64,000 nucleotides of DNA from Octopus vulgaris. Lineage: Eukaryota. Under the pieces are notes generated by a model that ran no database searches, was not told the origin of the DNA, and saw nothing but the letters and a program-made list of their open reading frames with translations. Where the stretch lies: NCBI GenBank assembly GCA_951406725.2, contig OX597825.1, positions 10,292,001 to 10,356,000 on the forward strand, in the 5' to 3' direction. A program made the translations under genes and the position numbers. Shown here one piece after another: positions 10,519-51,006 of this stretch (within the stretch, counting starts at the first letter, position 1; every line of letters starts with the position of its first letter).

Positions 10519-11312
10519 TAGTTTTATTTTTATAGCGTGCTTTCACTTTACTACCGAGCGCAGCTCTGTGTGCCTTAGGTATGTGCTGTGGTTTGCTGTG
10601 ATGCTCTTATGGTTACTGAATTGAAAGTGTTTTGCATAGGATGTGTGCAGTGCCTAGTAGTGCAATTTTCTGTATGTTATATATCTTCTTGTTATGTATT
10701 TGAATATTTTTTATCATACCTAATGTTTCTGTTTTTAGATTCCACATTCGAGTTAGCTCCATTTCCAGGTCTTTGTATTTTGAAAGTTTCTCCATTTAAA
10801 GAAACGTTGTTGTCTGCTGGTATTGATACATCAGTTAGAAAGCATTTTTTCTTCATGATCTCTGACAACTATATCTGGTCTATTAGCCTTAATTTCTCTG
10901 TCTGTCTGTATTAGCATATCCCAGAGTATGGCTGCTTTCTCGTTTTCTGTAACCTTTTCTGGCATGTGCCTATACCATCTTTTTTCTGTTGTTATTCCAT
11001 AGTGTTGGCATAGCTTCCAGTGTATGTAGGCCCCCACTCTGTCGTGTCTGTGAATATATTCCTTCTTAGCCTCTGGGCAGGAAGAGATAATATGATTTAT
11101 TGTTTCTTGCCCATCACATATTCTGCAGTTACTTGTTATGTTTCTCTTCATTATACGTTTTTGGTAATTTCTGGTGAGTCTTTGGTCTTGTGCTGCAATA
11201 AAAAATTCTTCAGTCTCTGCTTTGAGTCCTGAGCTCCTCAACCATTGCTGGGATTTTTCTCTGTCTATTTCTTTTGCATTTAGTTTAGCCCAGTATTTGC
11301 CATAAAGGGGCT
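10516..11312 (-). mobile_element. R4/Dong-like RLE non-LTR retrotransposon, 3' part (frameshifted), ending in (TAA)n at 10432-10515
   Basis: ORFs 10831-11388 and 10613-10795: LKAETEEFFIAAQDQ, CRIC...ETINHIISSC zinc knuckle, YIHRHD, ILWD, NRPDIV, EKLSKYKDL, LLGTAHIL; typical restriction-like-endonuclease C-terminus. Confidence 0.9.
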
Positions 11313-11456
11313 TTTCTAGCGTTGGTCTAATAGGGAAAAGCAGGAAAGGCCAAAGGGAAGGAGGACGAAGCAAGAAATAAATCGCCAATAGTCCACATGC
11401 TGTTACATTCTTGAAGTGCTTCTTCTTTCTTCCCTTTGGAATTTCCTGTTTTTCCT

Positions 11457-11491
11457 GTTTCCGAAGAAGAGCTATGCTCGAAACGTAAAAT
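11457..11491 (+). ncRNA. Minimal hammerhead-like motif (CCGAAGA core variant)
   Basis: GUUU-CCGAAGA-A-GAGC-UAU-GCUC-GAA-ACGU-A-AAAU; loopless palindromic helix III ACGU. Confidence 0.55.
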
Positions 11492-11521
11492 AACTACTCT
11501 TTTCCTTCTCCGAGCGTCGAA

Positions 11522-29040: not shown

Positions 29041-30650
29041 TAAATAATGTTATCTCTTTTACTTGTTTCAGTCACTTGACTGTGGTCATGCTGGAGCACT
29101 GCCTTTAGTCGAGCAAATCGAGTGCTGTGAACATGAGTTTATTAGTCTGTGAGTGACCCTCATATCCAAAGCATTCGTTTATAAACGATGTCGAATGCTA
29201 ACAAGGACAAAAGAAGAGACAAGAAGAATATCATCCCTTGCGCACACACGCATGAACAAGCAAAGAACATGGGCTACAGTCAGCTTTTGCAGAGAGATAA
29301 GCAAAGTCTTTTACCCGCTTCTTCCCACCTGCATTGATTAATGAAATATGCAGTTAATTATGAAGATATTTTTCGATCCTTCTTTAAAACATAAACTTAT
29401 TCCTTTATTACGACTCTTTCTTTAAGTTTAATCTTTTCCATTACTACTCTCACTCAAAGTAAACACTCAACACTCACATGTGCAAATCATATGTTTCTTT
29501 CTTTCCTTTGCTTTTGTAGTTCTGTTTAAAAATCACATTTCTTCAATTTCTCTCACTTAAATTTTTCTAATAGCGTGTCAAGCACCAATAATACGGAACA
29601 TATACCCCATATTTACAATGCCTTCTGTTACCAATTGCGAGAATGCTATGAAGGCAGGAATAGCAGCTAATGTCAGGAATGAAGCTTGAAGAATGACTGA
29701 GACTGATAGATTGAAAAGAGTCAACTGGAGTTGATTGATGAACGACGGATTCACATTTAACCGGAAAGTGTCAGTCAAGTTACACGGGGTTATCATGGCA
29801 AACAACTACAGCTGCAGAGCAGACGGAAGTCTCAAACAGCAAGACGAGTTTTGACTAGACCTCAGCCATACACACACTAGTAGTAGACATGATGTAATTA
29901 CTAACAATGTAGCCAGAGGAGAGGTTAGTCAGCTTTGCATTCGTCCAACAAGTTTTACTAGTAGTCCTCGACATCTGTACAAACAAACGGAGGATGCGAT
30001 GGCATATGTTCACTGCTTTATACAGCGGCACCTTATCATTACTTTCATCTGCAATTTCAGATGGAAAGAAATTCAAGAAGAGATCATGCCAAGTTAAAAA
30101 TATGCCCACAGTCATGAGCTGCTTAAAACTGAAGTATATAGTAATATTTGGATCAATCAGATAAATATCGTAGAATGGGGGAAAGAGACCTGTCAAATGC
30201 ATACACGCCATTGATTATTAAAGATACTCCATCACTGAACAGTTTGTTTTCTATTAGGAAAATGGTTAGCGAATGTGCATCGCTGCACCAGCTGCTATAA
30301 GTATAACAAGCGTGACATCAAAGACAAAACAATCATAGCATTTTTCAAGCTGTTCCAGTATGGTTTCTTCGAAAGACATTGATGTGCCATCAGGTCCATT
30401 AATCCTATAAATGAAACAAGAAGGACAAAAACGAAGAAAGCAAAATATCTGATATAAGGTTTGGCAGAATCGTTGAAAGACTCCAACTGACTTGAATCGT
30501 TACTGTTATTGATTCTCTATAAAATACGAATTTCCAAATTCATTTAAAGATCTTCAGTGGTGAAGTTTGCTTCACCAACAGAGAGAAATGCTTTGAACTT
30601 GCATCTTTATAATATTGTGTCTGGCGGGATGTAACAGTGTTAGAAACTAT

Positions 30651-36949: not shown

Positions 36950-37158
36950 CTATTCTAGGCACAAGGCCCGAAATTTTTTTGGGGGAGGGAGCCAGTCGAT
37001 TAGATCGACCCCAGTACGCAACTGGTACTTAATTTCGACCCCGAAAGAATGAAAGGCAAAGTCGACCTCAGCGGAGTTTGAATTCAGAACATAAACACAG
37101 ATGAAATATTGTTAAGTATTTCGCCCGGCGTGCTAACGTTTCTGCCAGCTTGCCGCCT
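36950..37158 (-). mobile_element. SINE-A variant with an alternative tail
   Basis: Family A head and body with tail ...AAATTTCGGGCCTTGTGCCTAGAAT. Confidence 0.82.
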
Positions 37159-37294
37159 TAGAATGTTCAAGGAATGAGAAACCAATTGTCAAGCCGTTAT
37201 ATCTATATTTCTTATTTCTTTTATTTAAATCATTAGACTGTGGCATGATGGGATACCGCCTTGAAGAACTTTTCGCAGTTGAATGAATTAATCT

Positions 37295-37676
37295 TATTAT
37301 CTGAAAGTTTTGGTTTTCTTCCGGAGTTTTGTTTCGACGAAAGAGAATGTTTTTTCCCTCTTTCTCAAAGGCTTTCATTACTTTCGAGATAGTACCTCTT
37401 GATACATCAAACATTTCGGCTGTTATCGTTACGCTAGCGCCTGCCATACGAGCACCAACAATTTGACCTCTTTGAAAGTCCAATAGATCTGTCATTTTAA
37501 TGAATTTTAATTACCTTTATCTGATGATATCTGAAAAGAAACAGCAAGTTTAGCAAAACATATAAAGCAACACTAATAATAAATCAAAAAACATAAAAAT
37601 AAACAAGCATTTGACGGTTTTATAGATATTTCAAAATTATGATGCTAGGTGTTTCCATTCTTTTCTCCAACCCCTG
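37295..37676 (-). mobile_element. Tc1-like transposon 5' fragment (TIR plus paired-like HTH start)
   Basis: TA|CAGGGGTTGG... end at 37676; MTDLLDFQRGQIVGARMAGASVTITAEMFDVSRGTISKVM. Confidence 0.85.
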
Positions 37677-41951: not shown

Positions 41952-43232
41952 TTGGGTTGAGGAATAATTCATGAACTTTTTTTTTCAAATTTATTTTAAA
42001 CAAAGAACCTACAACAAATTAATCAATAATATTCTCTCCGTTGTTGTTTACGACTTCCTCCCATCGTTCAATAAGTCTTTCGATGCCTCGGCCATAAAAA
42101 TCTCCCGGTTTTGACTCAAAGAATTCGTCCAACCAAGTCCTCAATTCCCCGTCATTATTGAACGATAAACCGCACAATGCATTCGAACGCGGTCGAAAGA
42201 GATAAAAATCTGACTCTGCCAAATCTGGAGAGTATGGAGTATGAGGCAGCGTTTCCCATTCGAGTTCTTAAATCGCGGCTTTGGTCATATTGGCGATGTG
42301 AGAGACGGGCAATGTCGTGTTGCAAAAGAATGCCATTTCGCCTGTTCGGTCTTTTTTGTTGAATTGCTTCGTTGTGTCTGTGAGTTGTTGAACGTAGAGC
42401 GCCACATTCAGTGTTTGGTTGCGCTCAAGCAGTTCGTAATGAATTATGCCCTCCCAGTCCAACCACACACACAACATGGTCTTTCGAGGATGAAGGACTT
42501 GTTTTGCTCGCGGAGTCGCTTGTTTGTCGGAGCTGAGCCATTCTTTTCGCTGTTTCATATTGACGAAAAGGCAGCCTATGTCATCGCCAATGACAATGCG
42601 ATGAAGAAAACGCTGTTTGTGACCATGCGTTGAGCGATGTCGAGCGAGCAAACTGGCGGCGAATTGTGGAGTGTCAATTTTTGTTGTATCTCTCAAAGTG
42701 TGTGGTGCCCAAGGGCTGAGTTTCTGAACCTTGCCCATTGAGTGAAGGTGTTTCACCACAGTTTTTCCACCACAATCCATCTACTCCGCTAATTCTCTGG
42801 TCGCTTGACGTGGATTTTCGTGAAGTTGATTCAATCGCTCTTCATCGAACTCAATTGGTCGACTGGTGTGTGATCCATCCTCGAGGTCAAAGTTTCCATT
42901 TTTGAGACTTGAAAACCAACGGCGGGCGGTACTTTGAGACATTTCCCCTTCTCTATACACAGCACAAATCTCACAAGCAGCTTCGGCGGCCTTAACACCT
43001 CAATCAAAGGCAATGGTGTCGAAAATGCTCAGTTTTGTCCACTTGACATTCATTCCACTTTAATGATCGGAAATACACAAAAATCAATAAAATAAAAAAA
43101 TAAAAACACACTAACTTGTAGAGCAAAACATTCTCTTTTAAATAACATAAAACATTTTGCCAATGCGTTTTATTTCTGCGTGTATTTTTAAATTTGAAAA
43201 AAAAAGCACTCATGAATTATTCTTCAATCCAA
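41952..43232 (-). mobile_element. Full-length (~1.28 kb) mariner DNA transposon, inactive
   Basis: TIRs TTGGGTTGAGGAATAATTCATGA (41952-41974) and TCATGAATTATTCTTCAATCCAA (43210-43232); TA on the left flank. Confidence 0.93.
42019..43056 (-). pseudogene. Mariner DD34D transposase pseudogene (frameshifted)
   Basis: EHFRH, WAPHTL (WVPHEL), FLHRIVIGD, LHPRKTMLCVWLDWEGIIHYELL, YSPDLAESDFYLFR, GIERLIERWEEVVNNNGE. Confidence 0.92.
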
Positions 43233-47061: not shown

Positions 47062-47621
47062 ATATATATATATACATATATATATGTTTATATATGTAGA
47101 TGTATATGGACATATACGTATATATATATGTACATATATATGCGTGGTGGTGTGGGGGTGTATACTTACACACACTTGCACGTGCATACGCTAACATCAG
47201 ACTTCTACGTATATACGTATATATACATTCATAGACACTTGCTCACACACACAACTGTGTGTGTAAGGTATGTGTGTGTGTGTGTGTGTTGCTTTTCTTG
47301 CTGTTGTTGTTGTTGTTGTTAATTGGCGATTTCTTCTTGTTAGTTTGAGCAAACATCATGGACGACAAAATTAGGCGTAACACACAGCTGTATGCACACG
47401 TATATGGAAATACTTGACCATGCGTGAATGAATTTGTGTATAACACACACACACATCGTGGCGCATATTTGCCATTTGAATATGGCTAACCCCTAAGGGT
47501 GGATGCTACTGTAGTTTGTAACCTCAGGAAGATATCTCCTCCAGCTGGCTATAGACACACTATCTGTGCCCTATCAGTATTTGTGAAGGGAAGTCATCCT
47601 TCCCGTCTTCAACTTATGATA

Positions 47622-47666
47622 CACACGGACTCGAGTTTCAAGGTGTTTACCTATCATCAGCGTGTG
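47622..47666 (-). ncRNA. Type I hammerhead ribozyme motif, canonical core, inside a ~280-bp element (47457-47734) bounded by ACACACACACAT
   Basis: CACACG-CUGAUGA-U-AGGU-AAAC-ACCU-U-GAA-ACUCGAGU-C-CGUGUG; 6-bp helix I, 4-bp helix II, palindromic helix III, GUC triplet. Confidence 0.85.
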
Positions 47667-47757
47667 ACAATCATAGTTGTCGACGAGAATTCAGTTTCCC
47701 TCACAAATACATATACTTTTTCCAGTGTCGATTGACACACACACATAAACGTATATA

Positions 47758-47992
47758 CAGGTTTGACGAAAAGTCACCTGACAGTAAATCAAAACCATTT
47801 AATTCTAAGATTTATTTATGCTTAACAACTGAATGAATTTAATAAAAGCATCTAAATATGAAACATCATGGAGATTGTTCAAAGTGAAGTCTTTCTTGAG
47901 CGACACATTTTTTTTCAAATGAATAAATAAAATTGAATATTAAGTATTTCTGGAATTTTGATTTATTATCAGGTGACTTTTGGCCAACCCTG
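47758..47992. mobile_element. Tc1/mariner-type MITE (235 bp)
   Basis: TA|CAGGTTTGACGAAAAGTCACCTGACAGTAAATCAAAA ... TTTTGATTTATTATCAGGTGACTTTTGGCCAACCCTG|TA. Confidence 0.88.
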
Positions 47993-50958: not shown

Positions 50959-51006
50959 GTCTCCGATGACGGGATGTATAAAATATCCCGGAAACTGCTG
51001 TAAGAC
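50959..51006 (+). ncRNA. Hammerhead ribozyme motif (CCGAUGA core variant)
   Basis: GUCU-CCGAUGA-CGGGAUGU-AUAAA-AUAUCCCG-GAA-AC-UGCU-GU-A-AGAC; 8-bp helix II, 4-bp helix I. Confidence 0.7.

Follow-up and report, generated by a model that had tools for sequence, protein, structure and literature searches.

A truncated hammerhead retrozyme arm in the Octopus vulgaris genome and its likely copying by Penelope-like elements

The truncated arm and its hammerhead motif

The stretch of Octopus vulgaris DNA analysed here (64,000 nucleotides, the window) carries on its minus strand, at 47457..47734, the unambiguous body of a truncated retrozyme arm corresponding to positions u75-u352 of a 352-bp unit. 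Together with the junction microhomologies the arm occupies 47451-47738 (minus strand, u71-u6, 288 nt); its span is given as 278-288 bp because the flanks continue to match the unit for 6 nt at the 3' end (ATGTGT) and for 4 nt at the 5' end (GTGT). The repeat noticed on both sides in the initial annotation is confirmed as a 12-bp target-site repeat ACACACACACAT (plus strand). It is found at 47445..47456 next to the 3' end of the element, where the nearest 6 nt (ATGTGT, minus strand) equal u1-u6, and again at 47735..47746 next to the truncated 5' end, where GTGT (minus strand) equals u71-u74. The target duplication of 12 bp, part of which is microhomology, is longer than the 4 bp that a retrozyme duplication is expected to exceed. 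What had been described as a 280-bp element within (CA)n turned out to be about 0.8 of a 352-bp tandem unit, truncated at its 5' end. No further copies of the unit were found within the 64-kb window, and the ORFs over the element gave no Pfam match.

The ribozyme motif is an extended type I hammerhead (47616..47674, minus strand, as are all its parts) composed of a distal helix I, a UGU/U internal loop, the core, helix II and a 2-bp helix III. Helix I is formed by CACACG (47666-47661) and CGUGUG (47627-47622) over 6 bp and is prolonged by the distal helix AUGAU/AUCAU and a longer stem (fold z = -3.98). It encloses the core CUGAUGA (47660-47654), helix II with loop 2 (U-AGG-UAAACA-CCU-U, 47640..47653; base pair U10.1.U11.1, 6-nt loop UAAACA), GAA (47639-47637) and the palindromic ACUCGAGU (47636-47629) at helix III. 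The three-helix junction leaves helix I open, and C3 U4 G5 A6 N7 G8 A9, G12 A13 A14, A15.1-U16.1 and H17 are all present. Read on the minus strand, the well-preserved hammerhead of the initial annotation, with its full core, perfect 6-bp helix I and palindrome, is thus retained, and so is its cleavage nucleotide: by sequence 47628 is C17 of the GUC triplet, and the cut is predicted 3' of C17 (u181/u182).

A motif with helix I of at least 6 bp and helix II of at least 4 bp was found in none of 200 dinucleotide-shuffled windows, and the looser motif at 0.01 per shuffled window. The 278-nt element folds with z = -4.97, a value equalled in none of 200 shuffles. Helices I and II are predicted to pair with a probability of ~0.86 in the genomic context. 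The predicted probability of helix III is 0.0 in monomer folds, and the ACUCGAGU palindrome is predicted to self-pair at -10.7 kcal/mol. Two Rfam matches at E<=10 were obtained over the element, neither of them a hammerhead; over the window the hammerhead was absent among 150 of the 166 listed matches, and at the gathering score it was not found in four multi-copy loci, canonical G-C array included. As canonical G-C arrays are missed too, the Rfam result reflects the models more than the motif. Two further hammerhead-like sequences of the window, a looser CCGAUGA motif at 50963-51000 (plus strand, 8-bp helix II, 4-bp helix I) and a CUGAUGA with weak helices at ~25411 (minus strand), are probably relics or chance.

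The U.U pair at 10.1.11.1, regarded as an oddity in the initial annotation, is the state of a whole subfamily (53 of 58 cores, part of the sample being chosen by a pattern that fixes U11.1). From the majority of this U.U subfamily, whose median divergence is 1.7% (53 arms), the window copy differs at 3 of 282 nt (47524, 47521 and 47461), none of them in the ribozyme. Since the copy is young, the good preservation of its ribozyme reflects age and not selection.

The surroundings consist largely of other repeats. A high-copy MITE-like repeat adjoins the element at 47758-47992 (inverted termini CAGG.TTG..AAAAGTCACC, TA on both sides), which we take to be of the Tc1/mariner type. Fragments of a broken mariner (42271-42999, minus), a Tc1-like HTH (37136-37510, minus), a Helitron (29855-30094, plus) and a non-LTR zf-RVT (10834-11493, minus) lie farther off, and a long near-perfect inverted repeat at 225-435 with a sub-threshold MIR841 match is likely a MITE. 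No host exon was found by Pfam in 400 of the 888 ORFs (at least 38 aa), where only transposon relics scored above the cut-off, and the 10 kb on each side hold no convincing long ORF, though short exons would escape. No run recorded as RNA contains the element's sequence words, and fourteen runs guessed as RNA contain part of them; contigs of one such run cover the element and the neighbouring repeat, and the unique flank is covered by no run.

The comparison with published systems draws on PMC7229834, 10.64898/2026.07.22.740005, PMC4209133, PMC8557442 with its preprint, PMC6962438 and PMC2220036. The octopus hammerhead shares with HHR_Amex2 of axolotl the 2-bp helix III with tetraloop and the U.U at the base of helix II; the HHR_Amex2 monomer is cut to 22% in 1 h and the dimer much better (PMC7229834). 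By this analogy a hammerhead that stands alone, has a 2-bp helix III and carries U.U is expected to be weak as a monomer and, even if transcribed, would likely cut little. This bears on the suggestion that the window copy is part of an intron transcribed on the minus strand and that its ribozyme cleaves an appreciable share of the host pre-mRNA. Its core is indeed intact, helices I and II form in the predicted genomic fold, and ~43% of Xenopus copies are intronic (10.64898/2026.07.22.740005). It is nevertheless quite unlikely: the Pfam search of 400 of the 888 ORFs revealed no host exon, the single weak-type hammerhead has no partner in the window, and the youth of the copy explains its preservation. 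Instead of the single conserved intronic locus that marks a domesticated hammerhead, a young multi-copy family was found.

The repeat family and its insertion pattern

The repeat unit, as seen from flank comparison of copies, is 352/353 bp long, non-coding and tandem. The copy alignment proposed as a check in the initial annotation gave 97-99% identical copies on many contigs with a 352-bp period. The copy search of the 2.8-Gb genome gave 2602 candidates, of which the 40 that were scored yielded at least 72 matches, and exact core patterns occur at 71, 539, 673, 243 and 180 places (the patterns overlap; controls 0). As the patterns with 673 and 243 places are disjoint, the lineage holds at least about 900 near-intact cores, plus more decayed relatives.

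The insertion anatomy was derived from 60 fetched loci, 47 of them distinct, with 79 arms; arms on both strands are found in 30 of the 47. The 3' ends are concentrated at two sites ~45 nt apart (67 of 79 arms), namely A (u352-u6, 40 arms) and B (u44-54, 27 arms), and the same A and B ends are found in the G-C, A-U and older subfamilies. (TA)n abuts 56 of the 67 canonical 3' ends. The family thus inserts into (TA)n and not into (CA)n, as had been supposed from the window copy, which is the only (TG)n case among the other 11. The local (CA)n has only 5-6 repeats and is an atypical target; the 3' end here is the canonical end A with a microhomology longer than usual. Both outer ends are canonical in 19 of the 28 back-to-back loci, and in all 19 one is A and the other B; the other 9 have one non-canonical end. 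At the 5' side no fixed start is seen: the ends vary in position and lie within 3 nt of the cut in 1 of 79 arms. The cut site is crossed by 60 of the 79 arms, and two cut sites by 4.

Covariation was examined in 61 distinct cores chosen from 114 to span the subfamilies: 93.2% of the cells are paired, and 10.1.11.1 is unpaired in 39 of 61. Compensatory change is seen at 10.2-11.2 (AU 32, GC 27) and in distal helix I (AU 32, GU 17, GC 10), where the counts represent subfamily-level events, the shuffles ignore kinship, and kinship together with the search patterns inflates the figures. The conservation of the core, of helix I and of parts of helices II and III is partly built in, being fixed by the search patterns. 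[quoted passage not shown] A satellite or slippage product arising at the DNA level, with a hammerhead-like motif by chance, would fit the microsatellite-rich surroundings and the lack of an Rfam match. The shuffles and the compensatory changes make it extremely improbable, as do copies that are dispersed, share fixed 3' ends and are truncated at random on the 5' side, an end pattern that contradicts it.

Mussel elements of 350-390 bp and the axolotl Rtz353, which carries HHR_Amex2, are among the non-LTR retrozymes of animals (PMC7229834; Cervera and de la Pena 2020). The octopus family resembles those described there in its ~350-bp non-coding tandem unit with GC below 50%, in having one type I hammerhead per unit, in the highly paired predicted circle and in the long target duplication. 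It differs in its short arrays (1-5 units), often back-to-back, and is known here from sequence alone; for its fixed A/B ends and (TA)n targeting the accessible part of that paper describes no counterpart. The family displays every testable feature of an animal non-LTR retrozyme, the window copy itself being less than one unit. The words 'octopus' and 'cephalopod' do not occur in the main text of PMC7229834. A cephalopod retrozyme is not described in the literature searched; supplements, which were not covered, may list such motifs.

The unit may carry a promoter of the kind found in snRNA genes. ATCAGT is present in 38 of 40 U1/U2 loci (ATTAGT in one) at -57 to -61, and the unit carries CAATATCAGTG at u63-73, its ATCAG (u67-71) being nearly invariant in 42-43 diverged arms. 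With a 22-column promoter matrix the site is unranked in the U.U unit. Three narrower matrices place u67 first on the sense strand, with equally good scores in 188, 26 and 113 of 2000 U.U shuffles and, for the G-C unit, in 309, 458 and 174 of 2000. If ATCAGT acts as in U1/U2 genes, the full unit would tentatively start at u124-u128 (47681..47685, minus strand), a weakly placed start that is unusable here: in the window copy ATCAG is replaced by host (TG)n, and if ATCAG is the promoter core the copy has lost it. Newt satellite 2, whose snRNA-type promoter is cited in PMC2220036, is likewise a hammerhead repeat with a U1/U2-upstream motif ~80 nt before the core; unlike there, the promoter role in octopus corresponds only to a weak motif match. 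ATCAG ahead of two ribozymes on one arm was found in 1 of 47 sampled loci. Two U2 genes (L275, L282) are preceded by one and the same foreign sequence, which has no ATCAGT, as would be seen after insertion of an element where U2 begins. Having a single ribozyme and lacking the putative promoter core, the window copy is unable to make unit RNA alone; it is likely a dead end and not a switch inside a host gene.

Penelope-like elements as candidate enzymes

A genome search for GIY-YIG gave at least 148 matches, 150 of 6136 candidates being scored. Two young families of Penelope-like elements (PLEs) with RT, CX4CXXC linker and C-terminal GIY-YIG are present in the genome. Both have two 3' end sites in (TA)n, separated by 30-35 nt, as well as minimal hammerhead-like motifs; the retrozyme tail (~45 nt) is longer than their tails (30-35 nt). 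The first family has 781-aa RT-GIY-YIG frames that are 95-99% identical in 13 compared copies. It is represented by the very young loci L121-L135 (e.g. L132 481-5290, with the intact 781-aa frame), 7 of 15 of which have an overlapping upstream frame of 333-479 aa. Its minimal hammerhead-like motif shows U3-A8, a change described in PMC4209133. The second family (L136, L141-L170) is ~100% identical in 40 scored copies with a 4271-bp tandem period; its hammerhead variant is CCGAAGA with a palindromic AGUACU.

No PLE protein match was found inside the units, and no 3' sequence common to the unit and an autonomous partner was found among 16 + 30 + 30 PLE loci. Several candidate links were rejected. 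L136 had at first appeared to be a PLE that runs into the unit (83.5% over 231 nt), but the PLE stops ~600 bp before that point, at a (TA)n of its own; in L213, L005 and L261, considered as PLE-unit chimeras, (TA)n or host DNA lies between the pieces, which indicates a shared target. The PLE link of L026 was judged from the flank only.

Craig et al. 2021 (PMC8557442) describe PLE insertions as truncated, often in partial tandems or with the 5' copy inverted, bearing a tail of 30-40 bp at one end and biased towards microsatellites. The octopus family shares with the EN+ PLEs of the Neptune-type linker (PMC8557442) the 5' truncation, partial tandems, inverted 5' arm, one-end tail and (TA)n bias, and differs from them in having no RT or GIY-YIG ORF, a tail of ~45 nt against 30-40 and a canonical hammerhead. 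Young PLEs co-occur with the retrozymes of both octopus and Xenopus, the Xenopus monomers being dispersed over all chromosomes (10.64898/2026.07.22.740005). Unlike the Xenopus pLTR derivatives of the same source, the octopus unit showed no pLTR homology, and its PLE link is drawn from insertion anatomy. As neither PLE family shares sequence with the unit, the partner is deduced from this anatomy only; on it the family behaves like a non-autonomous Penelope passenger, likely copied by PLEs. The stretch at 47457..47734 is probably a 5'-truncated single-armed insertion of the 352-bp non-coding hammerhead repeat, likely made via a Penelope-like enzyme and likely inert as a mobile element.

The unit might alternatively be the solo terminal repeat (pLTR) of an undetected autonomous Penelope-like element. 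Xenopus retrozymes do resemble pLTRs (10.64898/2026.07.22.740005), and the 150 scored GIY-YIG candidates are a small part of the 6136. This is unlikely, since in 47 + 19 mapped loci the units are preceded by units and never by an ORF, PLE pieces near copies are joined to them via (TA)n or host DNA, and the canonical hammerhead of the unit contrasts with the minimal variants of the two PLE families.

Ribozyme subfamilies and the proposed cycle

The sister subfamilies have G-C, A-U or, in the older ones, C.A at 10.1.11.1. With a freer core pattern the first 100 of 539 matches comprise 89 G-C, 10 U.U and 1 A-U. The G10.1-C11.1 pair is absent from the U.U copy and present in the G-C sister subfamily. 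The A-U subfamily (L201-L229) has ACUCGGGU as helix III and often a GUA triplet in place of GUC, and a CCGAUGA (U4C) core is found in 7 of 58 U.U-subfamily cores (L013, L022, L057 and others), in L013 in all three.

The subfamilies also differ in array length. Arms with several units are rarer in U.U (4 of 67) than in G-C (18 of 61; Fisher p = 0.0007), the U.U arms being taken genome-wide and the G-C arms from the first 89 matches only; after a rough correction for divergence (U.U 1.7%, G-C 0.6%) p is about 0.001. Arms with at least three cores number 7 in G-C and none in U.U, and G-C arrays extend up to 1803 nt, with 5.1-unit arms at ~100% identity. The difference could be explained by age or by a different enzyme as well as by ribozyme strength.

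The favoured reading, a retrozyme copied by PLEs, implies the following cycle. Transcription of multi-unit source loci would come first, perhaps driven by a promoter of snRNA type inside the unit. Unit-length RNA would then be excised by two hammerheads, which probably pair via ACUCGAGU, and a host ligase would close the ring. The GIY-YIG/RT enzyme would then nick (TA)n and prime at end A on one strand and ~45 nt further (end B) on the other, one or two arms being written straight across the ribozyme site. In the window copy the next six letters of the unit, ATGTGT, match the target, and this match likely made a (TG)n site usable for priming. Copying would have stopped after ~285 nt, and rejoining through GTGT would have left the 12-bp duplication; the empty site would be one ATGTGTGTGTGT.

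The same element could instead be copied from uncut linear read-through RNAs, the U.U ribozyme being a weak or idle passenger. This reading would agree with the length of the U.U arms (at most 615 nt among 79), with the few arms that cross two cut sites and with the rare variants within one locus, of which few are shared (shared against unshared, 8 against 169 in U.U and 12 against 41 in G-C); the mostly unshared variants count weakly against copying from one circle. It is also favoured by the high conservation of G10.1-C11.1 according to PMC4209133 and by the zero probability of helix III in monomer folds. Scattered 5' ends with no fixed start and the nearly identical 5.1-unit arms of the G-C sister speak against it. 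The 10.1.11.1 mismatch, moreover, recurs in older subfamilies that also spread, and in axolotl a hammerhead with U.U is efficient as a dimer and gives rise to circular RNA (PMC7229834). Unfavourable to the main reading, only 1 of 9 Xenopus retrozyme dimers was cleaved in one study. On balance linear templates appear possible but rather doubtful.

A more speculative extension, which we regard as unlikely, is that one lineage passed through the series C.A, U.U, A-U and G-C and that ribozyme strength sets the Penelope copying mode, strong G-C ribozymes yielding circles that are copied round into long arrays, and weak U.U ribozymes mostly sub-dimer arms such as the window copy. If this were true, hammerhead catalysis would be tied directly to rolling-circle retrotransposition, and the Penelope tail would be two priming sites on one RNA ring. 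Taken alone, the window copy is an ordinary insertion, young and truncated. Its family has a wider meaning: animal retrozymes have only been suspected of PLE mobilisation, and here a Penelope footprint, with one tailed and one untailed end in 19 of 19 two-armed insertions, stands beside intact candidate enzymes. The ribozyme's role in the cycle could be tested directly on subfamilies that are ~90% identical and differ at 10.1.11.1 and in the length of their arrays.
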